From an uncultured Actinomycetota bacterium (GTDB lineage Bacteria; Actinomycetota; Humimicrobiia; Humimicrobiales; Humimicrobiaceae), in the NCBI GenBank assembly GCA_964578525.1, contig CAZODG010000003.1, forward strand, positions 1 through 36,101: DNA of 36,101 bases, in the 5' to 3' direction. The position numbers and the translations under genes are program-made. The notes beneath the pieces are model-generated. The model was not told the origin of the DNA. It saw only the letters and a list, made by a program, of their open reading frames with translations, and did no database searches. Shown here in pieces: positions 8,201 through 29,784 of the stretch (the stretch's first letter is position 1; every line of letters starts with the position of its first letter).

Positions 8201-9241
8201 ATGAGTTATCCTTGCTTAAAAATATACCTGGATAAAATTTCTTATAATAGTGAGATCATCAATACACGATGTGCGCATCTTGGAATATCTGTAGTCGGTG
8301 TTACCAAGTGTGTACTGGGAGACATTAAAATCGCGGAGGCAATGAGAAAATCCGGTATTTCTGTTTTTGGAGACAGCCGGCTGGAAAATCTCAAGAAGTT
8401 AAGGAATTTTTACGGTGAAGATCAGAAGCTTCTAATGCTGAGGAGCCCCATGACCGGCGAAGTTGAAGATCTACTCGGGATTTGTGATATCAGCTTTAAT
8501 ACTCAGTTAAAAACCCTGGAAATAATAGAAAAAATCTGCCGCAGGAAGAAGATAAAGCATCGAATAATAGTCATGGTGGAAACAGATGACCGGAGAGAAG
8601 GGCTGCTTCCGGGGGAAGTAGTGAATTTCTGTCAGCGGATAGTAAATAATTTCGGATCTATCGAATTATATGGTTTGGGGACAAATGCAAGGTGTGTCAC
8701 CAAAAATGGCCCGAACCCTGAAAGTCTAAAAATGCTTGTAGATCTAAGGGAAGATGTTATGAAGGTCACAGGAATAAACATGCCGGTAATCTCGGGTGGA
8801 AATTCAAGTGTCTGGAATTTAATAGAAGAGGGTACGATTTCCAGAGGAATAAATCAGGTAAGAATAGGGGAAGCTATACTCCTGGGGCATGATACTGTAA
8901 ATTACAAAACCATCAAAGGCGCATATACTGACTCGTTTATTCTTGAAGCCGAAATAATAGAGGTTAAAAAAAGAAATAATGATGTGTGTAAAGTAATACT
9001 GGCCCTCGGGCTCCAGGATGTAGACAGTAAGAATATCCATTGCCGCAGCGATTATTTGAGTGTTTTGAACCAGAGCAGCGACCACACTATTTTAAGTGTA
9101 AAGGAAGAAAAACTAAAAAAACACGGAGAAAATGCTTTAAATCTGGAAGCAGGCGAAATAATCTCTTTTAATCTTGATTATTTTGGTTTATTATCCTGTA
9201 TGAGCTCCCCATTTATCAAGAGAAATTATATAGAGGGATAA
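8201..9241 (+). CDS. Alanine/ornithine racemase-family PLP enzyme (Orr/YhfX-like)
   Basis: Motifs GVTK (PLP Lys), GDSRLENL, MVETDDRREG, ISGGNSS, INQVRIGEAILLG, ALGLQD and SSDH. Confidence 0.85.
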   Translation: MSYPCLKIYLDKISYNSEIINTRCAHLGISVVGVTKCVLGDIKIAEAMRKSGISVFGDSRLENLKKLRNFYGEDQKLLMLRSPMTGEVEDLLGICDISFNTQLKTLEIIEKICRRKKIKHRIIVMVETDDRREGLLPGEVVNFCQRIVNNFGSIELYGLGTNARCVTKNGPNPESLKMLVDLREDVMKVTGINMPVISGGNSSVWNLIEEGTISRGINQVRIGEAILLGHDTVNYKTIKGAYTDSFILEAEIIEVKKRNNDVCKVILALGLQDVDSKNIHCRSDYLSVLNQSSDHTILSVKEEKLKKHGENALNLEAGEIISFNLDYFGLLSCMSSPFIKRNYIEG

Positions 9242-9259: not shown

Positions 9260-10075
9260 ATGCTTAATTCAGAAGATTTATTTGATCTTTCCCAAACAAG
9301 GTTCAAAGGCCTTTTTGAAGATACTGAATATGTATGGGATGCCCTTAAAAAACTAAAGAAATATATCGGGGATAACCTCAGGCCTAATGTTTCCGGTTTA
9401 AGGAAGAAAGGCGAAATACTTTTAAACCAAACCCTGGTCCTATATGATGATGAAGTCATTGAAGCAGGATTCGATGTCAGCATATCTAAAAAGAAATTAA
9501 TCATAAAAAAAGACGGCGAGTTTCTCGATGGTGCAAGCGTGATTTATGCAGGAGCTGTCCTTATGGATAATGAAATATATATCGGGAAAGGTACGATTGT
9601 AGAGCCGGGCGTATTGATAAAAGGACCGGCCATTATTGGCGATAATACCGAACTGCGCCAGGGAGCATATCTAAGAGGCGATACACTGGTCGGAAACGGA
9701 TGCGTAGTCGGACATACAACTGAATTAAAATCCTGCGCAATGCTTGGTGAAAGCAAAGCGGGACATTTTGCATATATCGGAGACAGTATTCTCGGTAAAG
9801 TTAATCTGGGTGCGGGAACAAAACTGGCAAATTTAAAGATAGTCGAATCAGATGTCGTGATCAGCATAGAAGGTAAAAAATACGAAACGGGTTTAAGGAA
9901 ATTTGGAGCAATACTTGCAGATGGCGTAGAGACGGGATGTAATAGCGTTACATCTCCGGGGACCATACTCGGGAAGGATGTGCTCTTATACCCGAATACG
10001 ACTGCAAGAGGTTACTGTCCTCCAAAAACCATAATAAAGCTGGAACAGACACAAATACTAAAACAAAGGATATAG
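9260..10075 (+). CDS. GlmU-like left-handed beta-helix acetyltransferase (no nucleotidyltransferase domain); probable GlcN-1-P N-acetyltransferase
   Basis: Hexapeptide repeats with AGHFAYIGDSILG.VNLGAGT.LAN and GLRKFGAILAD...TGCNSV..PG. No N-terminal LAAGxGxR motif; only 271 aa. Confidence 0.8.
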   Translation: MLNSEDLFDLSQTRFKGLFEDTEYVWDALKKLKKYIGDNLRPNVSGLRKKGEILLNQTLVLYDDEVIEAGFDVSISKKKLIIKKDGEFLDGASVIYAGAVLMDNEIYIGKGTIVEPGVLIKGPAIIGDNTELRQGAYLRGDTLVGNGCVVGHTTELKSCAMLGESKAGHFAYIGDSILGKVNLGAGTKLANLKIVESDVVISIEGKKYETGLRKFGAILADGVETGCNSVTSPGTILGKDVLLYPNTTARGYCPPKTIIKLEQTQILKQRI

Positions 10076-10133
10076 CTTCGTAAGCGCTGAGAACAGGAAG
10101 ATAAGTCAGTGACTAAAAAAAGGAGATAAAGAT

Positions 10134-11483
10134 ATGAGTAAGTTATTCGGAACAGATGGGATCAGAGGAGTTGCGAATCAATATCCGATAACTCCTGACA
10201 TGATTGCGCAAATCGGGCAGGCAACTGCTTATATATTAAAAAAAAGAAAACACCGTTTGAGGATTGTCATAGGAAAGGATACCAGACTATCCGGTTATAT
10301 GATAGAAAGCGCTCTTGTATCAGGCATATGCTCGATGGGAACGGATGTAATACTTGTTGGTCCCGTACCGACACCCGGCATAGCTTTTTTGACCATTAAT
10401 CTCGATGCCGACGCGGGGATAGTGATTTCAGCTTCGCATAATCCCTATCAGGATAATGGAATTAAAATATTTTCAAATAGCGGATACAAACTGAACGATG
10501 AAGCAGAATTGAAAATCGAAGAGCTGATACTATCACAGAAACTTCCGACTCTTCTTACAAATGCCGAAAACCTTGGTCATGTTTATAGAGAAGAAGACGC
10601 CAGCGGAAGGTATATCGTATTTCTCAAAAATTCTTTTCCCGCCAGTCTTGATCTCGAAGGAATGAAGATCGTACTTGATTGTGCAAATGGAGCCACTTAT
10701 AAAGTCGCCCCCACGTTGTTAAAAGAAATGAGGGCCGATATCATTGCTCTGAATATAAGCCCGAATGGACAGAATATTAATCTGGATTGCGGTTCCCTGT
10801 ATCCCGAAACCCTTGCAAAGAAAGTGGTCGAGTCCGGAGCAGATATTGGGCTCGCTTTTGATGGTGACGGAGACAGGCTGATAGCAATAGATGAAAAAGG
10901 CAATATAGTCAATGGCGATAAGATAATTGCAATTTGCGCAAAGAAATTGAAGGAAGAAGGCAAGCTTAAAAATAACACGGTAGTTACGACCGTGATGAGC
11001 AATCTGGGTCTTTCCGTAGCATTCAAGGAGATGGATATAAAAAATGTGACAACAAAAGTCGGCGACAGATATGTTTTAGAAGAAATGATAAAAAACGACA
11101 GCATTATAGGGGGAGAGGATTCGGGCCATATCATTTTCAAGGAGTATCATACTACGGGAGATGGTATTTTGACCGCGCTGCAGCTTTTATCTGTTATGAA
11201 AAAAGATAAAAAAACGCTTTCTGAGCTGACAAAGGTAATGAAGACATTCCCCCAGGTTTTAATAAATATAAAGGTTAAAAGAAAAGCCCCGCTTGAAGAA
11301 ATACCTGAACTTAAGAGTGTAATCGCAGAAGTCGAAAGAGAACTCGCTGACAGAGGCAGGGTTCTTGTAAGATATTCCGGCACCCAGTCTGTTTGCAGGG
11401 TAATGCTGGAAGGTCCCAATAAAAGCGATACAGAAAGACTTGCAGATAAAATAGTAAAAGTGGTGGAAGATAAATTGAATTAA
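10134..11483 (+). CDS. glmM: Phosphoglucosamine mutase
   Basis: Motifs FGTDGIRG, GIVISASHNP (phospho-Ser), DGDGDR, GGEDSGH and RYSGT. Confidence 0.97.
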   Translation: MSKLFGTDGIRGVANQYPITPDMIAQIGQATAYILKKRKHRLRIVIGKDTRLSGYMIESALVSGICSMGTDVILVGPVPTPGIAFLTINLDADAGIVISASHNPYQDNGIKIFSNSGYKLNDEAELKIEELILSQKLPTLLTNAENLGHVYREEDASGRYIVFLKNSFPASLDLEGMKIVLDCANGATYKVAPTLLKEMRADIIALNISPNGQNINLDCGSLYPETLAKKVVESGADIGLAFDGDGDRLIAIDEKGNIVNGDKIIAICAKKLKEEGKLKNNTVVTTVMSNLGLSVAFKEMDIKNVTTKVGDRYVLEEMIKNDSIIGGEDSGHIIFKEYHTTGDGILTALQLLSVMKKDKKTLSELTKVMKTFPQVLINIKVKRKAPLEEIPELKSVIAEVERELADRGRVLVRYSGTQSVCRVMLEGPNKSDTERLADKIVKVVEDKLN

Positions 11484-11599
11484 CGAACCGGTCATTATAA
11501 CCTGGCATCGGCTGATCCTCCGGGATTTCTTTTGGATAATATACAAAGAGATCAAACATTTTATTGCTTTCATCATACTGTCATCCAGGTTTGTGGTTT

Positions 11600-12502
11600 A
11601 TGATAAATAAAATTACCGAACTTCTAACAGAACACGGTCCCTTAACCGGGAAGGAACTCTGCGGCAAGACTATGCTGGATGAACTCTCTTTATGGCGCCT
11701 TTGCAGCAGTTCCGATAAAATCATTTTAAAAACATTCGGAAAAAGATTTTTGAGGCTCGATGCGAGAGTCGAGGGATACGCAAGACTTTCCCCTTCCATA
11801 AAAAGGGAATTCCTGACTTATACCGTTATAGGGCTGGAGAAAGATTCCGGGAAAATCGATAAGATAGCAGATTCGCTTTATAATAAAATAAGAAATATAA
11901 GCAGGCAAAAATTTGAACTTGCCCGGGAAATAATAAAAAAAATAACAGAAGGTCAGGCAGAACCGGAGATTATAACCAGCGGTGCCTGCTTTATTATTGC
12001 CGGCGATATAGTTTATGAAATGGCGCACTCGGAACCAAGACCCGAGAAATCGACAGGGAAACTCGTAAGAGGTTCCGATATTGATATTGTGGTAGTTACC
12101 GAAAATCTGCCTGAGAGTACAATAAAAAATATCGACAGCTCGATATATCAGGAAAAATATTACCTTATTAAGAATCCCGGTTACAGGGAAGAGATAGACT
12201 ATATCGTAAAAGATATACAAAAAGTACGGGAACAATTAAAATTCGATACTTTTAAATCTATGATTGCATCAAAGATCCTGAGTGAGGGAGAATTCCTCTA
12301 CGGAAGCCGTAATATTTTTGAGAAGATCAAAGAGATGCTTTTAAAATCTAAAATTCCGGAAAAATTACTCGCTATAGAAGAAAAAGCGGCAGTTAACAGA
12401 GAGAAAGCAATATCTTGCCTTCTTAATAGTACGGAGCTGCTTCCCGAAGAGCAGTACATGAAACTATTCTATACAAAACAGGAAAAAGAAGAAATCTTTT
12501 AA
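11600..12502 (+). CDS. Uncharacterised protein: N-terminal HTH-like segment plus Pol-beta-like nucleotidyltransferase motifs
   Basis: N-terminal ELLTEHGPLTGKEL (winged-helix-like), FIIAGDIV...SDIDIVVV and a downstream EEIDYIV. ATG 11600 preferred over the track's TTG 11564. Confidence 0.6.
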   Translation: MINKITELLTEHGPLTGKELCGKTMLDELSLWRLCSSSDKIILKTFGKRFLRLDARVEGYARLSPSIKREFLTYTVIGLEKDSGKIDKIADSLYNKIRNISRQKFELAREIIKKITEGQAEPEIITSGACFIIAGDIVYEMAHSEPRPEKSTGKLVRGSDIDIVVVTENLPESTIKNIDSSIYQEKYYLIKNPGYREEIDYIVKDIQKVREQLKFDTFKSMIASKILSEGEFLYGSRNIFEKIKEMLLKSKIPEKLLAIEEKAAVNREKAISCLLNSTELLPEEQYMKLFYTKQEKEEIF

Positions 12503-13329
12503 GACTGAGATATCGAGCCTGACCTGTGATCCGACTTTAATTTTTCAACATGTCTGTAATGGTCAGTATTTTGTAGTTCCGAGGCGGCATCTTCGTCAAG
12601 GACAACAGTTGCCTCTCCACCGTAAAGCTGTATTGCCGATGCTGTGATCTGCGATGTTACGGGTCCTTCAAGCGCTTTTGCTATGACTTTTGCTTTTTTC
12701 TTTCCGCTGGCAAGCATGATCAGCTGCCTTGCTTCGAGAATCGTTCCGATCCCCATCGTGATTGCAAAATACGGCATATCTTCTCTTCCTATGTTTGCTT
12801 TCTTATAGAAACTCTCATAATTATCATCCAGGGTCTGTTTTGTCAATGGTTCGACTCTGGTTCTGGAAGACAGAGAGGAACCGGGTTCATTGAATGCCCA
12901 GTGGCCGTCGCCGCCTATCCCGAGAAGCTGCAGGTCTATTCCTCCTGCTTTTTTTATCTCATCTTCATACCACTTACAAAACTTATCAGGTTCTCTTGAA
13001 AACCCGTCAGGAACATGAGTGTTATCCTTTTTGATATTTATATGTCTGAAAAACTCTTCGTACATAAACCTCGCATAACTCTGGTCCAGATGATACGGCT
13101 TATCAAGATCGATTCCGACACCAAGATACTCATCAAGATTAAAAGTTTTGACTTCCGAAAAATCAAGCCCACGACTGTGCATCTTTATTAGTTCTCTGTA
13201 TGTCCCTATCGGGGTACCTCCTGTTGCAAGTCCGAGGACACAATCAGGCTTCGATTTTATGCATTTTGCTATGATCCCGTCGGCATATTTGCTCATCAGA
13301 TCATAATTTTCTCTTATAATGACATCCAT
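12499..13329 (-). CDS. nagB: Glucosamine-6-phosphate deaminase
   Basis: Motifs LGLATGGTP, TFNLDEY, IDLQLLGIG.DGH.AFNEPGS and AITMGIGTI. Likely start MDVIIREN at 13329 with AGAAGGT upstream. Its stop overlaps the convergent gene's stop at TTAA 12499-12502. Confidence 0.96.
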   Translation of the reverse strand: MDVIIRENYDLMSKYADGIIAKCIKSKPDCVLGLATGGTPIGTYRELIKMHSRGLDFSEVKTFNLDEYLGVGIDLDKPYHLDQSYARFMYEEFFRHINIKKDNTHVPDGFSREPDKFCKWYEDEIKKAGGIDLQLLGIGGDGHWAFNEPGSSLSSRTRVEPLTKQTLDDNYESFYKKANIGREDMPYFAITMGIGTILEARQLIMLASGKKKAKVIAKALEGPVTSQITASAIQLYGGEATVVLDEDAASELQNTDHYRHVEKLKSDHRSGSISQS

Positions 13330-13623
13330 AAGTACCTTCTTTGAAATCAGTTTAAAAAATACTTGATTATTATCTCTGTTTTTTAATATTCTGTATAGAA
13401 AAATTTTCTCCAAAAAATGGTTGTGGTAAATAAGGCAATAAGCAAAGCAGGTGCTTTTATAAGAGGCAGTAGAATTTTATTCCTTTTCAATGGTATCTAC
13501 TGGAATGATGATCATCAATATTATATAAATATTAAAGATACGATATTTTAGCAGGCTATAGAAATTGTAAACTTATTTACAATTTACAAATAACCTGCTC
13601 TTGGTTAAATAAGAATTATTTTT

Positions 13624-13897
13624 TTATGCTTTTGGCTCAGTATTATTCTTGATTTCAGTAAGAGTTTCGTTCATACGGAAGAATAAGATCAATATCTCAC
13701 AATATATTCTTACACCAATAGGTCCTAATAAAATATATGCCAGCCCGATTAAGATTGAGGTTCCACCACCCCATGGCAAACTTGCACCTATACCAATCAT
13801 AACGAAACCAAGAATAACGAATCCCACTACACCAATCCAAAATATAACCTGAATAATTACCGGAGTTATCATTCTACGAAACGAGAAAATCCTTCAT
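13624..13897 (-). CDS. DUF4282-family membrane protein with an apparent 2-nt frameshift near its 5' end
   Basis: MITPVIIQVIFWIG...RIYCEILILFFRMNETL is the DUF4282 pattern. The strong SD AAGGAGGAG precedes an out-of-frame ATG at 13897; the intact frame spans 13624-13872. Confidence 0.7.
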
Positions 13898-14269
13898 TTT
13901 TCTCCTCCTTTTTGAATAGTTTAAGATTGTTTTTGTAAGATATATTTTGATTTTACGATTTTATAATAACATATAATTAATGTATTATAAATGTATGTTA
14001 CTTTACTAAAATATATTTCAAAGATTTGTTTAATTATCATGAATTACCTGATTTTTCATAGCTTTTATCATAGTACTAAATTAATATTTTTTCACCGGGT
14101 TGTATTAATTTTGAATAAAAGAAACAGGAAAAATTAGAATACTGGAAAAGTTTAAATTCAAAATAGATTATAATCGTGGAGTCGTACATACATCGAAGTT
14201 TTAAATATCACCTGGTTTGTTATATAATCACTCTGAATTATTCATATGTGAATGGAAAAAGGAGAAAGA

Positions 14270-15055
14270 ATGAAAAATAAAATTATAAGAATATCATTGT
14301 TTTTTATAGTCTCATTAATTTCAGTCTTCGCGGCAGTAGCACTTTCAGGATGCCTGGATGGGGAAATAGCTCCCTATAGTACCGAAAGTGAAAGTTTAAC
14401 CGGGGACCTTCAGAATACGATATCCGTAACAGGTTCGGGCACGGTTAAAGTCATTCCGGATGAAGTTTTTATAGATATATCGGTAGTAACGGAAAAATCT
14501 TCAACTAAGAGCGCAGTAGATGAGAATAGCCGGGTCTCCGAAGAAATAATTTCTGCAATAGAAGCTTTAAATGCTGAAAATCTTACAATAGAAACAACCG
14601 GTTTCAACCTCAATCCTTTATATGATTATTCGCAGAAAAACAAACCGCCGAGGATCTATGCATATCAGGTCGTGAGCACCCTGAAGGTAACAACAACCGA
14701 TCTGGAAATAATCGGGGAGATAATTGCCACTGCAACGGAGTCCGGCGCAAATGATATATCATCGATAGGTTTTGACTTTACTGATGAATCAAAGAAGACG
14801 GCGGTAAATGATGCGCTTGCAGAGGCGTCAAAAGATGCGGACAATAAGGCACATGCTATCGCAAATTCAGCAGGTCTGGTCATAAGCCGGATTCTTTATA
14901 TATCCGAAAGTGGAACGTCATATCCGGGGCCGCTTTATTCGATATCGAAATTAGATGAAGGCATAGAAGCCTTAGACGGGATTACAACCCCTACGATTCT
15001 GCCTCAGGAAATAGAAATCACGGCAAACATAAATATTGTATATTTATTTGAATAA
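14270..15055 (+). CDS. SIMPL/DUF541-domain lipoprotein
   Basis: Signal peptide with LSGC lipobox; motifs TISVTGSGTVKVIPD and A..KA.AIA...G. ATG 14270 follows SD AAGGAG. Confidence 0.88.
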   Translation: MKNKIIRISLFFIVSLISVFAAVALSGCLDGEIAPYSTESESLTGDLQNTISVTGSGTVKVIPDEVFIDISVVTEKSSTKSAVDENSRVSEEIISAIEALNAENLTIETTGFNLNPLYDYSQKNKPPRIYAYQVVSTLKVTTTDLEIIGEIIATATESGANDISSIGFDFTDESKKTAVNDALAEASKDADNKAHAIANSAGLVISRILYISESGTSYPGPLYSISKLDEGIEALDGITTPTILPQEIEITANINIVYLFE

Positions 15056-15129: not shown

Positions 15130-16995
15130 ATGTGTGGAATAGTTGCATGTGTGGGAAATGAAAAATGTAAAGATATATTGATAAACGGGCTCAAACGGTT
15201 GGAATACAGAGGTTATGATTCGGCCGGTATTGCCATGATAGGGAGAAATCAAGATGAAGTCACAGATTTGACGGCGGGTTCGACGAATTTAAAGATAAAT
15301 GTCGTCAAAGAAGCAGGAAAAATCAGTATACTGGAAAAAGAAGTAAATGATTCAAAAATAGATGGAAACTGCGGGATCGGGCATACCAGATGGGCAACTC
15401 ACGGAGAACCGACTAAAATAAACGCCCATCCCCACCTGGATGAAAGCGGCGGTATTGCGGTTGTCCACAATGGAATAATAGAAAACTATGCTGAGCTAAA
15501 AGAGAAACTTAAAAAAGAGGGACATAAATTTATTTCACAAACCGATTCCGAAGTATTGCCCCATCTGCTTGAGAAATACTATGACGGAGATTTGCTTTCA
15601 GCAATGCAGAAGGTCATAAAGAAAATAAAAGGATCCGGGACCATTGTGGCAATTTCTGTAAATAATCCTGGTGAAATAATCGGGGCAAGGATCACCAGCC
15701 CTCTGGTCGTGGGAATTTCGGGAAATGGAAACTTTCTTGCTTCGGATATACCTGCAGTGCTTGAATATACAAAAAATTTTATCGTAATAAATGATTTCGA
15801 GACCGTAAGGCTGACCGCGGATAAAGTGGAAATTTTTAATAGTGATGGGAAGCCGGTCAGGAGAGAATCCTTCAAAGTCGACTGGGATATCATAAGTGCC
15901 GAAAAAGGCGGATACGAAGATTTCATGTTAAAAGAAATATTCGAACAGCCTTATGGAGTCAAAGAAACTATGAGAGGAAGACTGGTAGACGGAAAGCTGA
16001 ATTTCGATGAACTTGGCATGATGCCCGAAGAGATCAAAAGCCTGAAGAAAATCCGGATAATCGCATGCGGGACATCTTATCATACGGCTTTGATCGGAAA
16101 ACAGGTCATAGAGAAATGGGCAAGAATTCCGGTTGAAGTGGATTTTTCATCGGAATATAGATACAGGGATAAACTTGCCGAAGATAATTGTTTATTTATT
16201 GCCATAACCCAATCGGGAGAAACTATTGATACTCTTGCAGCAATCAGAGAAGCAAAATCCGGTGGAGCAAGAATAGTGGCCATTACAAATGTAGTGGGGA
16301 GTACCGTAGCAAGAGAATCAAATGCAGTGATCTATACATATGCCGGTCCTGAAATAGGCGTGTGTGCCACAAAAACATATACGGCGCAGATCATGGTCAT
16401 GTATCTTATGGCTTTATATTTTGCCAGAGTCAAGAGGCTTGTCGATAAAAACAAATTTGAAAGAATAATCGGACAATTGAAAACCATACCAGATAAAATA
16501 CAAAATATACTCAAGCGCGCAGATGAAATAAAGAAAATTGCCGATAAAACTTATAAATATACATGTTTTCTCTTTCTGGGAAGGATTTTCGGGCTGCCGA
16601 CCGCACTGGAAGGAGCATTGAAACTTAAAGAAATTTCTTATATCCATGCAGAGGGATATCCGGCAGGCGAAATGAAACATGGTCCGATAGCCCTTACGGA
16701 TTCAAAAACAATAGTGGTAGGAATTATGCCTCATGATTCGGTTTACGAAAAGATATTGAGCAATATTCAGGAAGTAAAAGCAAGAAAAGCAACTATATTT
16801 TCCATAATCAGTGAAAGTGATAAAAATACGCAAAAATATTCGGATTATGTTTTCCGGATACCCGAAATACAGGAGGAATTATACGCTATCTTAACCATTA
16901 TCCCTGTCCAATTATATTCTTATTATATTGCTAAAAACCTGGATAGAAACGTGGATCAGCCAAGAAATCTTGCAAAGAGCGTCACAGTGGAGTAA
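15130..16995 (+). CDS. glmS: Glutamine--fructose-6-phosphate aminotransferase
   Basis: Motifs MCGIV, LEYRGYDSAG, GHTRWATHG, EGALKLKEISY and PRNLAKSVTVE. Confidence 0.99.
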   Translation: MCGIVACVGNEKCKDILINGLKRLEYRGYDSAGIAMIGRNQDEVTDLTAGSTNLKINVVKEAGKISILEKEVNDSKIDGNCGIGHTRWATHGEPTKINAHPHLDESGGIAVVHNGIIENYAELKEKLKKEGHKFISQTDSEVLPHLLEKYYDGDLLSAMQKVIKKIKGSGTIVAISVNNPGEIIGARITSPLVVGISGNGNFLASDIPAVLEYTKNFIVINDFETVRLTADKVEIFNSDGKPVRRESFKVDWDIISAEKGGYEDFMLKEIFEQPYGVKETMRGRLVDGKLNFDELGMMPEEIKSLKKIRIIACGTSYHTALIGKQVIEKWARIPVEVDFSSEYRYRDKLAEDNCLFIAITQSGETIDTLAAIREAKSGGARIVAITNVVGSTVARESNAVIYTYAGPEIGVCATKTYTAQIMVMYLMALYFARVKRLVDKNKFERIIGQLKTIPDKIQNILKRADEIKKIADKTYKYTCFLFLGRIFGLPTALEGALKLKEISYIHAEGYPAGEMKHGPIALTDSKTIVVGIMPHDSVYEKILSNIQEVKARKATIFSIISESDKNTQKYSDYVFRIPEIQEELYAILTIIPVQLYSYYIAKNLDRNVDQPRNLAKSVTVE

Positions 16996-20750: not shown

Positions 20751-20834
20751 GAATGGTCCGCATTTAAGTATTTTACAATTTCTCTATACTGTGCATAATA
20801 AATGTTACTATTATTAATTGGAAGGGCGTTTGCG

Positions 20835-21413
20835 ATGAAAGCAAAAAGAAATATAAAATCAAAATTACTGTTTACCGCTATATTTTTATTTATGATTATT
20901 ACCGTTATCAGTACATCATGCGCATGTCCTTTGTTTTCATATATTGAAAGGATTACCGGATTGGAAATAAAAACCGGTAAGGAAATCGATAAAAATCTGG
21001 TTAATGAAGAGTTGATCTATCCCGATTCTCTGGCCCTTGTACAGGTAGAAGGCGATATGAATGAGATTATGGATTTAATTGATAAGTATGGCGGAAGTTT
21101 AGCCGGAGAAGATCTTGCGATCCTTGAAAACCTGCCGGAGAATATAAGAGACGAGGAGTTCACGGCAACAATATATTCTACCCCTGATAATAAAACGGAA
21201 GTCCTTGATCATTACGGGACACTTCACAGCAAAGGATGGTTGATACTGAAAATACAGGATATAGCTGAAGAAGGAAATAATGAGCAGGGTACGATGCTTC
21301 TTGCCTCGAAAGGAACAGTTGAGCAAGCTTTTGTGCTGGCTGAAACACGGAAAAATACTTTCATAATATTTATTGATATCGATCTGGAAGCATTACTGGA
21401 AATGCAGAAATAA
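20835..21413 (+). CDS. Hypothetical exported protein, possible lipoprotein
   Basis: Basic N-terminus and hydrophobic stretch ending STSCAC. ATG 20835 preferred because TTTACA-16-CATAAT (20772-20799) ends just before the track's ATG 20802. Confidence 0.65.
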   Translation: MKAKRNIKSKLLFTAIFLFMIITVISTSCACPLFSYIERITGLEIKTGKEIDKNLVNEELIYPDSLALVQVEGDMNEIMDLIDKYGGSLAGEDLAILENLPENIRDEEFTATIYSTPDNKTEVLDHYGTLHSKGWLILKIQDIAEEGNNEQGTMLLASKGTVEQAFVLAETRKNTFIIFIDIDLEALLEMQK

Positions 21414-25165: not shown

Positions 25166-25606
25166 ATGAGAATATCTACCAGAGCAAGATACGGATTAAG
25201 ATTAATGGTGGAGATAGCCTTAAACTATAAAAAAGGTCCGATACTGCTTAAAGATATTTCTAAGAATATAGATGTTTCTGAGAAATATTTGAGTCAGATC
25301 ATGATACCTCTGAAAGGCAAAGGCCTGGTAAATACCTACAGCGGAGCACACAGCGGGTATATCTTAAGCAGACCACCTTCCGAAATCAAACTTAAGGAAA
25401 TCGTGGAGATCCTGGAAGGAGATCTGAGCCTGATCGACTGTGTTAATAATCCCTCTGTCTGTGACAGAGTATCTACCTGTGTGACCAGGGATATCTGGAC
25501 AGAAATAGGAGACAAAATATCGAAAGTTTTATGTTCATATACTCTGGGTGATCTTGTAAAAATGTGCATGGAAAGAAAAGATGATAGGATAATGTACAGT
25601 ATTTGA
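25166..25606 (+). CDS. Rrf2-family transcriptional regulator (three Cys)
   Basis: Motifs ISTRARYGLR, SEKYLSQI..PL...GLV and C-x6-C-x5-C. Confidence 0.93.
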   Translation: MRISTRARYGLRLMVEIALNYKKGPILLKDISKNIDVSEKYLSQIMIPLKGKGLVNTYSGAHSGYILSRPPSEIKLKEIVEILEGDLSLIDCVNNPSVCDRVSTCVTRDIWTEIGDKISKVLCSYTLGDLVKMCMERKDDRIMYSI

Positions 25607-25711
25607 ACTATACCCATATCAGCCTGATCTTTTTATAAATATTTATTTTAGAAAATTTAAAAATATTTTTAAGGATTACGAATGTGAAATTTATAGGAAA
25701 GGGGAAATATA

Positions 25712-27010
25712 ATGAGTAGAATTGATTCAAAATTAAAACCGGAAACGCTGGCGCTCCACGGAGGCCAGGAATCAGATCCCACTACGGGAGCCAGAGCTGT
25801 TCCCATATATCAAACCACTTCTTTTCAGTTCAAGAATTCGGAACACGCTGCAAATCTTTTTGCCCTGAAGGAATTTGGTAATATTTACAGCAGGATAATG
25901 AATCCCACAAATGATGTTCTGGAAAAAAGAATTGCACTTCTTGATGGCGGAGCCGGAGCTCTGGCGGTTGCAAGCGGACAGGCAGCGGAAACACTGGCAA
26001 TTCTCAATATAGCTCAAGCCGGAGATGAAATAGTCTCTGCCAATAATCTGTATGGCGGGACTTACAATCTTTTCCATAACACATTTAAAAGGCTTGGCAT
26101 AAAAGTCAATTTTGTAAAATCTTCCGATCTTGATGCTTTTAGGAATGCCGTTAATGAAAAGACAAAAGCAATTTATGCGGAGTCCCTGGGAAATCCAAAG
26201 CTCGATGTAACGGATCTGGAAAAACTTTCTGCAGTAGCGCATGATAATGGTATACCATTGATATTGGATAATACTGTTTCCCCTTATATCTTAAGACCAT
26301 TTGATTTCGGAGTGGATATAATAGTATATTCTGCGACAAAATTTATCGGAGGCCACGGGACGTCGATTGGCGGTATCATTGTGGACTCCGGTAAATTCAA
26401 CTGGGAAAATGGGAAATTTCCTCTAATAACTGATCCGGAACCTGCTTATCATGGGCTGAAATTTGTTGAGGCATTCAAGACCGTTGGAAATATTGCTTAT
26501 ATTTTAAAAGCAAGAGTCATTTTACTCAGGGATCTTGGACCGGCTCTCTCACCATTTAATTCATTCTTATTTTTGCAGGGTCTTGAAACCCTGCCTCTTA
26601 GGATGATAAAACATAGTGAGAATGCTCTGGGGGTAGCGGAATTTCTTGAATCAAATCCGCTGGTTAACTGGGTCAGTTATCCCGGCCTTAAATCAAGTCC
26701 GGAAAAATCAAAAGCTGAAAAGTATTTGAAAAAAGGTGCAGGAGCTATTATAGGATTTGGAATAAAAGGCGGAGCAGAATCAGGTAAAAAATTTATAGAT
26801 TCGCTGGAACTGGTTTCCCATCTTGCCAATATCGGTGATGCAAAAACACTTGCCATACATCCCGCGACAACCACACATCAGCAGCTTTCTGAAGAAGAAC
26901 AAATCGCTACCGGTGTAACAGCGGATTTTATAAGGCTATCAATAGGTCTTGAACATATTGATGATATTATTACCGATATCGGGCAGGCACTAAAGAAATC
27001 CCAGGAATAA
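25712..27010 (+). CDS. metY: O-acetylhomoserine sulfhydrylase
   Basis: Motifs [29 protein letters not shown] and [23 protein letters not shown]. Confidence 0.95.
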
Positions 27011-27079
27011 CAGGGATGTCCTTTTTATCGATGTTTTAAGGGTAAAATATCTTATTTATTAATTGGGAGGAGAACTAAA

Positions 27080-28006
27080 ATGTCAAAAATATATGAAGAT
27101 ATCACGAAAACTATTGGGAGCACCCCGCTCGTAAGAATAAATAACCTGACAAAAGGCTTAAATGCGACTGTTCTGGTAAAACTGGAATCGTTCAATCCTC
27201 TTTCAAGCGTCAAGGATAGGATTGGGGTCTCCATGATCGATGCTGCAGAAAATGAAGGTTTGATAAATAAAGATACGGTTATTGTAGAACCCACGAGTGG
27301 GAATACCGGTATTTCGCTGGCTTTTGTGTGCGCTGCAAGGGGATATAAATTGATTCTGACCATGCCGGATACGATGAGCCTGGAACGAAGGCAGCTTCTC
27401 AAGATATTCGGAGCCGAACTCGTCCTGACGGACGGAGCAAAGGGAATGAAAGGAGCGGTGGAAGAAGCGGAGAAAATTCAGAGAGAGACTAAAAATAGTT
27501 TTATGCCCCAGCAATTTGAGAACGCTGCAAATCCTGAAATACACAGGAAAACAACAGCAGAAGAAGTATGGGCCGATACCGATGGAAGCGTGGATATTTT
27601 TGTTTCCGGGATAGGTACCGGAGGAACTATTACCGGCGTAGGGGAAGCATTAAAAAAGAAAAAACCATCCATCAGAATAGTTGCAGTGGAACCGGCAGAT
27701 TCCCCTGTTCTTTCAGGTGGAAGTCCGGGTCCCCATAAAATACAGGGAATCGGAGCAGGATTTGTCCCTGAAGTATTGAATAAAAATATAATTGATGAAA
27801 TCATAAAAGTTTCTAATGAAAATGCAGGAATTGCAGCCCGAAGAATTGCAAAAGAGGAAGGAATTCTGGTGGGTATATCCAGCGGAGCTGCTTTGTGGGC
27901 AGCAATAGAGGTTGCCAGAAGACCGGAATCCGATAAAAAATTTATTGTGGTCCTTTTACCCGATACGGGTGAAAGATATCTTTCTACGTGGCTGTTTCAG
28001 GAATGA
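27080..28006 (+). CDS. cysK: Cysteine synthase A
   Basis: Motifs [29 protein letters not shown] and GERYLST. Confidence 0.97.
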
Positions 28007-28049
28007 TATTTTTATAATTATCAATTATATGTAAAATAATTACAGGCGG

Positions 28050-29189
28050 ATGAATATGAAAAATGCAGCAGAAATAATCGAAACAAAATATTTTAATTTT
28101 GCCGGACCTCCGGATGAGATGCTGCTGGAATCGGGGGAAAAATTGGGCCCGATCACAATTGTATATGAGACATATGGCAGGTTGAATGAAAACAGAAACA
28201 ATGCGGTCATGGTCCTGCATGCACTGTCCGGAGATGCTCATGCTGCCGGATTTCATAAAGGAGATAAAAAACCGGGTTGGTGGAACGATATGATAGGTCC
28301 GGGTAAAGCTTTTGATACCGAAAAGTATTTCATTATATGTTCCAATGTTATCGGAGGATGCAAAGGAAGCACGGGCCCGTCTTCATTGAACGAAAAGACA
28401 GGCAAGCCTTACGGACTGGACTTTCCGCATATTACAATATCCGATATGGTCAATGCTCAAAAATATTTGCTCGACTATCTGGGAATAGAAAGGCTGCTAT
28501 GTGTAGTAGGAGGTTCGATGGGAGGAATGCAGGTCCTGCAGTGGGTTTCTTCTTACCCGGAGAGGATTTTATCTGCTATCCCAATGGCCACGACATTAAA
28601 ACATTCACCGCAGCAGATTGCGCTTAATGAAGTTGGAAGACAGGCAGTGATGTCCGATCCCGATTGGAAGGGCGGCGATTATTACGGCAGCAATCAGCCT
28701 GAAAGGGGGCTGGCTCTGGCGCGTATGATCGGGCACATAACCTATATGAGCGATGAGTCGATGGAAAACAAATTTTCAAGGAAGCTTAAAAACGGCAGTT
28801 ATAATTTTTCATTCAAACCTGAATTTGAAGTAGAGGGCTATTTGCATTACAGGGGAGACAGTTTTGTAAAGAGATTTGACGCAAACTCTTATCTCTATAT
28901 AACCAAAGCGCTGGATTATTTTGACCTGTCGTCAGCAGATAAGTTTTTACCGGCTGGCAGAAAAATCGATACCAGGTTTCTGGTCATAGCTTTTAAATCC
29001 GATTGGCTGTATCCTTCATACCAATCCAGAGAGATTGTCAGAATGCTTAAGACAAGACGTCTGGATGTTACTTATTGTGAAATAAATTCAACTTATGGCC
29101 ATGATGCCTTTCTTCTGGAGTTTGTGGAAGAGACCCGTTTGGTCAGTCATTTTTTAAACAGGGTGCATGATAATGCAAAAAATAAATAA
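28050..29189 (+). CDS. metX: Homoserine O-acyltransferase (MetX family)
   Basis: Motifs [37 protein letters not shown] and GHDAFL. Confidence 0.95.
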
Positions 29190-29784
29190 TAAGATAATAA
29201 AACCGGATCACCGGATCATATTTGATATTGTGGAAACAGGTTCAAGTGTACTCGATCTCGGATGCGGCGGCGGGGAACTTTTAAATCTTCTTGTTAGGGA
29301 GAAAAAAATAAAGGCACAGGGTATAGAGTTAAGAGAAAAAGCTATTTATGAATGTGTCGAGAAAGGATTGAGCGTATTCCACGGAGACATAGAAGGCGGT
29401 CTGGGGGAATACCCGGATGATTCTTTTGATTATGTCATATTGAATCAGTGCATGCAGGAAACCAGAAAAATAGAGTTTGTGCTCAGGGAATCGTTAAGAG
29501 TGGGAAAAAAAGTAATAGTGGGATTTCCAAATTTTGCATATATCCGGTCACGTTTTAGCCTTTTTTTTGGGGGGAGGGCGCCGGTTACCCCATCTCTTCC
29601 GTATAAATGGTATGAATCACCGAATGTGCATTTCTTAAGCATAAAAGATTTTAAGGGTTATTGTAAGGAAAAGGGAATAAATATAATAAAGACATACTAC
29701 ATCGGAAGCAAGGGTCTTATAAGGTGCTTTCCCAATCTGCTTGCTCTAAATGCAGTTTTTGTTTTAGGTAAATCGCCGAGGTAA
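29167..29784 (+). CDS. metW: Methionine biosynthesis protein MetW
   Basis: Motifs [22 protein letters not shown] and GRAPVT..LPY.WY..PN; overlaps the metX end. Confidence 0.93.

Follow-up and report, generated by a model that had tools for sequence, protein, structure and literature searches.

Peptidoglycan, teichoic acids and lipid A all depend on the essential precursor UDP-N-acetylglucosamine (UDP-GlcNAc), and GlmU, which acts in its synthesis, is an antibiotic target. The locus described here codes for the acetyltransferase half of GlmU only. It lies in a 36,101-base stretch from an uncultured Actinomycetota bacterium (the window, meaning the whole DNA analysed), in which a stand-alone acetyltransferase of GlmU type (protein 9260-10075, called LbH) is followed by glmM and by the gene of a protein with nucleotidyltransferase motifs (protein 11600-12502, called NT). 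We found that NT stands beside amino-sugar genes in many lineages, and we tentatively favor the view that it is an enzyme acting on a hexosamine phosphate. The genes concerned are the following.

9260-10075, plus strand: LbH, GlmU-type protein with the acetyltransferase part only, 271 aa
10134-11483, plus strand: glmM, phosphoglucosamine mutase, 449 aa; TIGR01455 616.9 bits (cutoff 447.55), four PGM_PMM domains
11600-12502, plus strand: NT, 300 aa from the ATG; Pfam NTP_transf_2 21.7 bits (cutoff 21)
12499-13329, minus strand: nagB, glucosamine-6-phosphate deaminase, 276 aa from the ATG at 13329; TIGR00502 256.6 bits (cutoff 236.9)
15130-16995, plus strand: glmS, glutamine--fructose-6-phosphate transaminase, 621 aa; TIGR01135 778.3 bits (cutoff 418.05)

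The sequence-only reading had named these five genes at these positions, LbH with a beta-helix only, then glmM, NT, a convergent nagB, and glmS 1.8 kb further on, and the NCBIfam and Pfam matches agree with it. GlmM, NagB and GlmS each exceed the NCBIfam equivalog cutoff. The translation of glmM shows the SASHNP active-site motif, the nagB open reading frame (ORF) stays open upstream to a TTG at 13413, and glmS begins 1801 bases beyond the nagB start. The positions aligned with D72, H143 and E148 of E. coli NagB, which we take to be the catalytic Asp/His/Glu, were invariant in the three NagB subfamilies that are linked to NT.

LbH is made up of two parts.

9260-9556, plus strand: arm/linker segment of LbH, residues 1-99, corresponding to the GlmU arm
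9557-10009, plus strand: left-handed beta-helix of LbH, residues about 100-250

LbH matched Hexapep (E 7.8e-13), and residues 100-247 aligned with positions 243-391 of the 393 in the Arch_glmU model TIGR03992 (143.5 bits, cutoff 292.1). Against the canonical glmU model TIGR01173 the score was 48.8 bits (cutoff 366.85), and only model positions 260-384 aligned. LbH falls outside the bifunctional GlmU proteins, for it has no N-terminal GT-A nucleotidyltransferase domain and scores under the equivalog cutoff. It is not a truncated or broken gene, because its 120 best homologues are 249-312 aa long. Among solved structures S. tokodaii ST0452 came closest, through its C-terminal domain (2ggo/5z09, chain residues 243-388, E 5e-24). 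In BLASTP against E. coli GlmU, LbH residues 20-74 aligned on the arm region (GlmU 208-262), and R133, K157, H169, Y172, N182 and N191 corresponded to GlmU R333, K351, H363, Y366, N377 and N386, presumably the catalytic base and the contacts to glucosamine-1-phosphate (GlcN-1-P) and acetyl-CoA. Since these six residues are aligned with GlmU and all invariant in 26 homologues, LbH is very probably an active GlcN-1-P acetyltransferase.

Homologues of LbH are often named 'glucose-1-phosphate thymidylyltransferase' or 'NDP-sugar pyrophosphorylase family protein' in public records. These names look wrong, as the proteins have no nucleotidyltransferase domain, and the annotation 'glucose-1-phosphate thymidylyltransferase' needs correction.

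With NagB or GlmS, GlmM and LbH present, the only step to UDP-GlcNAc that is missing from the neighborhood is the nucleotidyl transfer. For a wider view we used loci of NT relatives: species-representative genomes were scanned once with the NT alignment, 298 relatives were confirmed, and the best 80 loci were kept. Two peptide patterns were used to find related loci, one of them the RLSPSIKREF region of NT. Every ORF of 70 aa or more, in the window as in the 80 loci, was searched with phmmer, with residues 1-230 of E. coli GlmU and RfbA as queries, and no GT-A domain was found in any of them. Full-length E. coli GlmU matched 34 loci and the window through the LbH part only. The earlier claim that uridylyl transfer is the single step missing here was borne out in the window.

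The protein encoded next to this gap was taken from the ATG at 11600, where its homologues begin; an alternative TTG at 11564 would add 12 residues. Its family is large, with at least 2261 homologues in a clustered protein set and 192 clusters at 50% identity in a representative library, and the identity across phyla is 45-67%. Two alignments were used, one of 26 sequences and one of 49 diverse homologues with identities down to 29%. NT had no NCBIfam match and no match to Pfam NTP_transferase or NTP_transf_3, no precomputed Pfam domain was present on the 120 homologues listed, and the NT profile had no match among PDB sequences at E<=10. The NTP_transf_2 match on residues 152-224 (E 2.8e-4) was borderline; weak matches (E<=1) to this model occurred in 37 of the 49 members and to Polbeta in seven. 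A search of the ESM Atlas with NT returned only its own family, plus NTP_transf_2/Polbeta clusters at 0.81-0.82, and when the NT alignment was set as a profile against E. coli GlnE and Cca, no similarity could be detected, the probabilities of 1.8 and 0.1 being uninformative. In the literature we found no paper tying a Pol-beta nucleotidyltransferase to GlmU, NagB or GlmM. NT is not accounted for by any curated family or by any paper that we found.

Conserved features of NT are arranged as follows.

11600-11770, plus strand: winged-helix-like N-terminal segment, residues 1-57 (GPLTGKEL ... W32 ... RFLRLD)
11783-11812, plus strand: RLSPSIKREF, residues 62-71, the most conserved motif of the family, with P65, R69 and F71 invariant
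11981-12214, plus strand: nucleotidyltransferase core, residues 128-205
12002-12007, plus strand: core motif G135-D136
12074-12085, plus strand: core motif S159-D160-I-D162
12191-12199, plus strand: core motif E198-I-D200
12464-12499, plus strand: acidic C-terminal tail LFYTKQEKEEIF, residues 289-300

Eighteen positions of NT were invariant in the 49 members. Conservation in this alignment covers an acidic set of five residues (G135-D136, S159-D160-x-D162, E198 and D200), the basic residues R52, R69, K104, R147, K186 and K225, and G17. The Pol-beta pattern consists of a G[GS] turn, a D-x-[DE] motif in the strand that follows, and a third carboxylate; NT shows it in G135-D136, S159-D160-I-D162, E198 and D200, with a spacing of 22 residues from G-D to D-x-D, longer than usual for Pol-beta. 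The RLSPSxREF motif lies outside the nucleotidyltransferase core. In the tail, F290, T292, E295 and E298 were invariant in 26 sequences, and the consensus LFYTxEExEE was retained in 49. We read NT as a likely enzyme and not as a decayed domain. From the borderline Pfam match together with the conserved motifs we infer a Pol-beta fold, and the best explanation is that NT would be a catalytically competent member of the Pol-beta superfamily which founds its own, uncurated family. Its novelty would be at most that of a new family within this superfamily.

Some homologues of NT are recorded as 'vacuolar-type H+-ATPase subunit F/Vma7', a name which looks wrong. In the records of two long relatives, P0296 (816 aa) and P0373 (1040 aa), NT stands between domains of no known kind; P0373 had a weak P-loop match in Pfam at relaxed thresholds, and neither protein had a match among PDB sequences. 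P0384 (296 aa) joins a NagB fragment to an NT fragment via a low-complexity stretch that looks like a frame error.

Conserved linkage of NT homologues to amino-sugar genes had been set beforehand as a test. We scored four genes on either side of NT, labelling neighbors by BLAST of ORFs with the window proteins and by clustering of the flanking genes; the phylum of each locus is the depositor's label. At least one amino-sugar gene stood within four genes of NT in 63 of the 80 loci, which come from at least eight phyla; as the loci are not phylogenetically independent (42 are from Bacillota), the raw counts overstate the independent observations, a point against the enzyme reading set out below. 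Many loci are truncated by contig ends; where 3 kb or more was available on each side (38 loci), 32 had an amino-sugar neighbor. The neighbors were counted as follows.

NagB: 52 of 80 loci by gene clusters; 53 of 80 by BLAST labels (38 convergent, 15 co-directional)
GlmU-type acetyltransferase: 38 of 80
GlmM: 22 of 80
YvcK/GlmR: 10 of 80 (TIGR01826 371.5 bits, cutoff 196); 11 by BLAST
GlmS: 4 of 80

Among the 38 acetyltransferases, 32 were of the window's type or of a short form of 225-239 aa, and six were a 417-aa GlmU-like form with a helical extension. By phylum, the linked loci were distributed as follows.

Bacillota: 39 of 42
Actinomycetota: 11 of 13
Acidobacteriota: 6 of 7
Elusimicrobiota: 2 of 2
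Verrucomicrobiota: 2 of 2
Planctomycetota: 1 of 1
Myxococcota: 1 of 2
Thermodesulfobacteriota: 0 of 4
Chloroflexota: 0 of 1

One Lentisphaerota locus was overlooked by the gene caller, and BLAST located nagB and glmM there. In a tree of 81 NT sequences the linked forms were spread over most branches. The linkage of NT to amino-sugar genes is not chance, because the same neighbors recur in 63 of 80 loci from other genomes; the test came out in favor of the association, with NT near nagB, LbH, glmM, glmS and YvcK/GlmR across phyla.

The layouts are various. In the window's group LbH-glmM-NT faces nagB, in Syntrophomonadaceae LbH-NT-nagB forms one operon, and in Acidobacteriota and Verrucomicrobiota NT faces an LbH2-glmM-nagB-like operon. 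In Sporotomaculum syntrophicum (L008, 1-11902) yvcK-NT faces nagB-cdaR-cdaA; here nagB replaces glmM behind cdaA-cdaR, and glmM-glmS is 5 kb away. Another locus (L022, 2147-9870) has a cdaA-like gene, glmM, glmS, a short LbH and NT, then a convergent nagB. This variation of gene order among lineages argues for selection on the association itself.

The partners vary also in kind. NagB proteins linked to NT share about 70-76%, about 40% or about 30% identity with that of the window, the acetyltransferases are of long, short (225-239 aa) or 417-aa GlmU type, and there are several GlmM types, while NT keeps its 45-67% identity throughout. That the partners switch subfamily while NT stays constant points to a shared pathway and not to one fixed protein contact. 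LbH lies directly upstream of NT in 18 loci, with a gap of -8 to +11 bases in 15 of them, and this tight spacing suggests that the two may be translated in a coupled manner.

The reading that we put first, with confidence well short of even, is that NT works as a small-molecule nucleotidyltransferase with a hexosamine phosphate for substrate. In the simplest case it would make NDP-GlcNAc from N-acetylglucosamine-1-phosphate (GlcNAc-1-P) and a nucleoside triphosphate (NTP), either in place of the GT-A half of GlmU or in addition to it. NagB or GlmS would make glucosamine-6-phosphate, GlmM would turn it into GlcN-1-P, and the stand-alone LbH would acetylate this to GlcNAc-1-P. NT would then move the nucleoside monophosphate from an NTP, with UTP as the simplest guess, onto the hexosamine-1-phosphate to give NDP-GlcNAc. 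Such a place beside GlmU would resemble that of the CofD-like GlmR, a non-GT-A protein for which formation of UDP-GlcNAc out of GlcNAc-1-P and UTP, and coexistence with GlmU, have been reported (PMC10128056; also PMC12637504).

The stronger form of this idea is somewhat less probable. It says that NT is a Pol-beta-fold nucleotidylyltransferase of GlcNAc-1-P (or GlcN-1-P), that together with LbH it would constitute a split, half non-homologous 'GlmU', and that this would be the main or the only route in lineages with an LbH-NT operon, where GlmU might be dispensable.

A protein of 753 aa, P0333, carries a phosphohexomutase with four PGM_PMM domains fused in frame to NT, an arrangement expected if NT uses a sugar-1-phosphate.

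Several facts weigh against NT as a pathway enzyme. The fold assignment is weak, with 21.7 bits against a cutoff of 21 and no PDB sequence match, and we know of no Pol-beta-fold enzyme with a sugar-1-phosphate acceptor. A winged-helix-like N-terminal segment is unusual for a plain metabolic enzyme; together with the acidic tail it would suit a regulator, and NT is found near the hub regulators YvcK/GlmR and CdaA/CdaR. Its commonest neighbor, NagB, is dispensable for UDP-GlcNAc synthesis where GlmS exists, and the NagB reaction opposes that of GlmS. The P0333 fusion is tentative, as it is known from one record, cut off within NT, and a search for longer (fused) relatives found none, which is itself weak evidence. 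Cultured Bacillota that carry NT presumably have canonical GlmU too. Many Bacillota loci (e.g. L004-L008) have nagB alone with NT and no stand-alone acetyltransferase; these loci fit an accessory or regulatory role better than strict replacement. Finally, a well supported clade of nine deltaproteobacterial-type NT sequences has almost no amino-sugar neighbors, with glmM in L078 only, and adjoins a Cys-rich protein, a CNNM/CBS protein, MobA and thiolase.

In that clade the gene directly upstream of NT encodes a conserved Cys-rich protein of about 280 aa (CFACCPPIRP ... CWALGY ... GCLLHP), located at 7168-8025 in L063, where it overlaps NT, at 7168-8001 in L066, at 6688-7686 in L071 and at 5926-6765 in L078. 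It had no Pfam or NCBIfam match. The MobA-like neighbor in the deltaproteobacterial loci was considered as a split uridylyltransferase and rejected, as by NCBIfam it is genuinely MobA-like, with scores below the cutoffs (best 184.9 bits).

A regulatory role is nearly as likely as the enzyme reading, although we hold it, too, to be uncertain. NT would sense a hexosamine metabolite and then, like GlnE and GlnD in nitrogen metabolism, adenylylate or uridylylate a protein (NagB, GlmS or GlmM), or else make a signalling nucleotide, and in this way set the balance between GlmS and NagB. Proteins are the targets of many Pol-beta enzymes. NagB is the most frequent neighbor (52-53 of 80 loci), the known hub regulator YvcK/GlmR is near NT in 10-11 loci, and NT is kept where no stand-alone acetyltransferase is nearby. 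The arrangements in L008, with cdaA-cdaR-nagB converging on yvcK-NT, and in L022, with cdaA-glmM-glmS-LbH-NT, speak for the same role, and the conserved acidic C-terminal tail could serve as a docking peptide. GlmM itself is reported to bind and inhibit the cyclic di-AMP cyclase CdaA/DacA (PMC6368335; 10.1101/2021.05.26.445777), which also counts for regulation. Against one specific protein target stands the fact that the neighboring NagB, acetyltransferase and GlmM subfamilies differ by lineage whereas NT is constant; the cross-phylum identity and the tight coupling to LbH look more like a pathway enzyme. The sequence-only reading had offered both possibilities, namely that NT replaces the GlmU uridylyltransferase with a Pol-beta fold or that it regulates the flux between GlmS and NagB. 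Its tie to the pathway is upheld by the linkage; the two possibilities are not separated by these data, and the word 'replaces' goes beyond them.

The way in which NT and nagB meet is also conserved. Their stop codons share four bases (12499-12502) in the window, and the same 4-base overlap was present in seven of the 38 convergent pairs (L002, L005, L011, L013, L024, L039 and L054). In 37 of the 38 fewer than 100 bases separate the stop codons, and in two pairs the genes overlap by 34 bases. As the stops are so close, the transcripts must overlap at their 3' ends, and separate terminators would hardly fit in between, if at all. The geometry suggests that the LbH-glmM-NT side and nagB, being transcribed toward each other, could be expressed antagonistically.

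This layout bears on whether NT could be a transcription factor, or an enzyme and repressor in one in the manner of BirA or NadR, whose winged helix would bind operators, the effector being bound or made by the nucleotidyltransferase-like part. The N-terminal segment of about 55 residues invites the thought: HTH_11 matched it weakly in six of the 49 members (best E 0.0026), PF0610-like_N in two, and other winged-helix models in single members, and NT has a conserved position beside genes that it might control. The usual layout with nagB is tail-to-tail and not the divergent one typical of regulators; and upstream of nagB (52 loci) or LbH (20 loci) crude tests found no shared palindrome and no shared 8-mer beyond words resembling ribosome-binding sites. 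The invariant catalytic acidic residues would be needless in a mere sensor domain, and the cross-phylum identity is unusually high for a regulator. We therefore regard this explanation as unlikely.

NT might also nucleotidylylate a hydroxyl of an amino sugar or an amino-sugar compound in the style of aminoglycoside and lincosamide nucleotidyltransferases, for detoxification or marking of a metabolite. The context is indeed amino-sugar metabolism, and the domain order, a small core and then a helical C-terminal part, seems to us to resemble enzymes of the kanamycin nucleotidyltransferase type, which act on amino sugars. The pathway is not known to contain a metabolite of this sort, and the profile search at E<=10 found no match to a solved aminoglycoside nucleotidyltransferase. 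With tblastn, NT had no match in 72,556 plasmids, where resistance enzymes are common, and it is located in core chromosome regions linked to ribosomal-protein genes. Such an activity seems to us quite improbable.

The linkage would be incidental if NT were a minimal nucleotidyltransferase of toxin-antitoxin or defence type. Minimal Pol-beta nucleotidyltransferases fused to or paired with winged-helix antitoxins exist, and the Atlas results included, with a score of only 0.81, an NTP_transf_2 cluster from archaea that has AbiEi_4 on 12% of its members. PADLOC gave no match at E<=0.05 for six members (best E 0.061, to a CARF model), no toxin-antitoxin-type partner gene recurs, and there are no copies in the same plasmids. 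Together with neighbors conserved in 63 of 80 loci across phyla, these results make this explanation very unlikely, the least probable of all.

When compared with known systems, LbH keeps the acetyltransferase half of the bifunctional GlmU of E. coli/B. subtilis type (TIGR01173), aligned to E. coli GlmU 208-426, and its neighbors supply the substrates (GlmS/NagB, GlmM). The GT-A half is absent from LbH, from the window and from all 80 neighborhoods, and NT has no sequence relation to it. ST0452, the closest solved relative, taken here with the archaeal and alternative bacterial GlmU models (TIGR03992, TIGR03991), has H308, Y311 and N331 at the positions of LbH H169, Y172 and N191; in ST0452, of 401 aa, a GT-A sugar-1-phosphate nucleotidyltransferase is fused on at the N-terminus, where LbH has a 99-residue arm.

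Known members of the Pol-beta superfamily use hydroxyl acceptors. With this superfamily (kanamycin nucleotidyltransferase, MNT, GlnE, GlnD) NT shares the G-[SD] ... S-D-x-D ... E-x-D pattern and a helical region after the core, and it differs by the N-terminal winged-helix-like segment, by RLSPSxREF and by a 22-residue conserved insert between G-D and D-x-D. The cdaA-cdaR-glmM-glmS operon of Bacillota likewise ties a nucleotide-handling enzyme to GlmM/GlmS, and the NT module is embedded in it or appended to it in L008 and L022; CdaA is a DAC-domain cyclase, unrelated to NT. GlmR/YvcK, which adjoins NT in 10-11 of the 80 loci, may serve as a functional model, being reported as a non-GT-A maker of UDP-GlcNAc (PMC10128056), but it is CofD-like, of another family than NT and without sequence similarity to it. 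The whole module is a new variant of the GlmS/NagB-GlmM-GlmU layout, functionally closest to GlmU plus GlmR and genetically like the cdaA-cdaR-glmM-glmS hub.

The window itself is a core chromosomal region, whose first part has the order rplO-secY-adk-map-rpsM-rpsK-rpsD-rpoA-rplQ-truA-rplM-rpsI. The closest relatives of its proteins are in uncultured genomes labelled Actinomycetota by their depositors, and the order rplM-rpsI-glmM ... glmS ... alr resembles, we believe, that of actinobacteria. Other genes around the module are listed below.

8201-9241, plus strand: pyridoxal phosphate (PLP) racemase-like gene
13624-13872, minus strand: small DUF4282 gene
14252-15055: SIMPL-family gene
beyond glmS: acpS, an NAD(P)HX repair fusion, a CBS protein gene and alr

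The racemase-like gene lies between rpsI and LbH, has the Ala_racemase_N domain only, and its best NCBIfam match, ornithine racemase Orr, was far under the cutoff (271.8 bits, cutoff 480). It is intact in L009, in two ORF pieces in L001, and outside the conserved module. Rfam search of the whole window found no glmS ribozyme or any other family (0 families), no YvcK, cdaA or cdaR was present in the window, and the spacer between glmM and NT gave no signal of RNA structure (z = -0.36).

Between the DUF4282 gene and nagB there is a perfect palindrome at 13563-13584, AATTGTAAA-TAAG-TTTACAATT, flanked by an AGCAGG/CCTGCT pair. It occurs once in the window (0.00-0.01 expected by chance), and the regions upstream of nagB elsewhere do not share it; it may form a terminator-like hairpin or act as an operator particular to this lineage. 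After alr, a 203-aa ORF (20802-21413, plus strand) had no Pfam match even at E<=1. At 25166-29784 there is a sulfur amino-acid cluster with an Rrf2 regulator, a Cys/Met PLP enzyme, a PALP (CysK-like) protein, an alpha/beta hydrolase (MetX-like) and MetW, which is unrelated to the module.

In a survey of 12,939 genomes, the UDP-GlcNAc pathway was reported to look incomplete in about 10% of non-endosymbiont genomes, often with GlmS or GlmU missing (PMC7725333). GlmR has only recently been reported as an accessory uridyltransferase (PMC10128056). NT is a concrete candidate for a missing enzyme or a flux controller of this pathway. If NT and LbH did form a split GlmU, the last step of UDP-GlcNAc synthesis would have been solved independently once more, besides the GT-A proteins GlmU/UAP1 and the CofD-like GlmR, and NT would be the first Pol-beta enzyme known with a sugar phosphate as acceptor.

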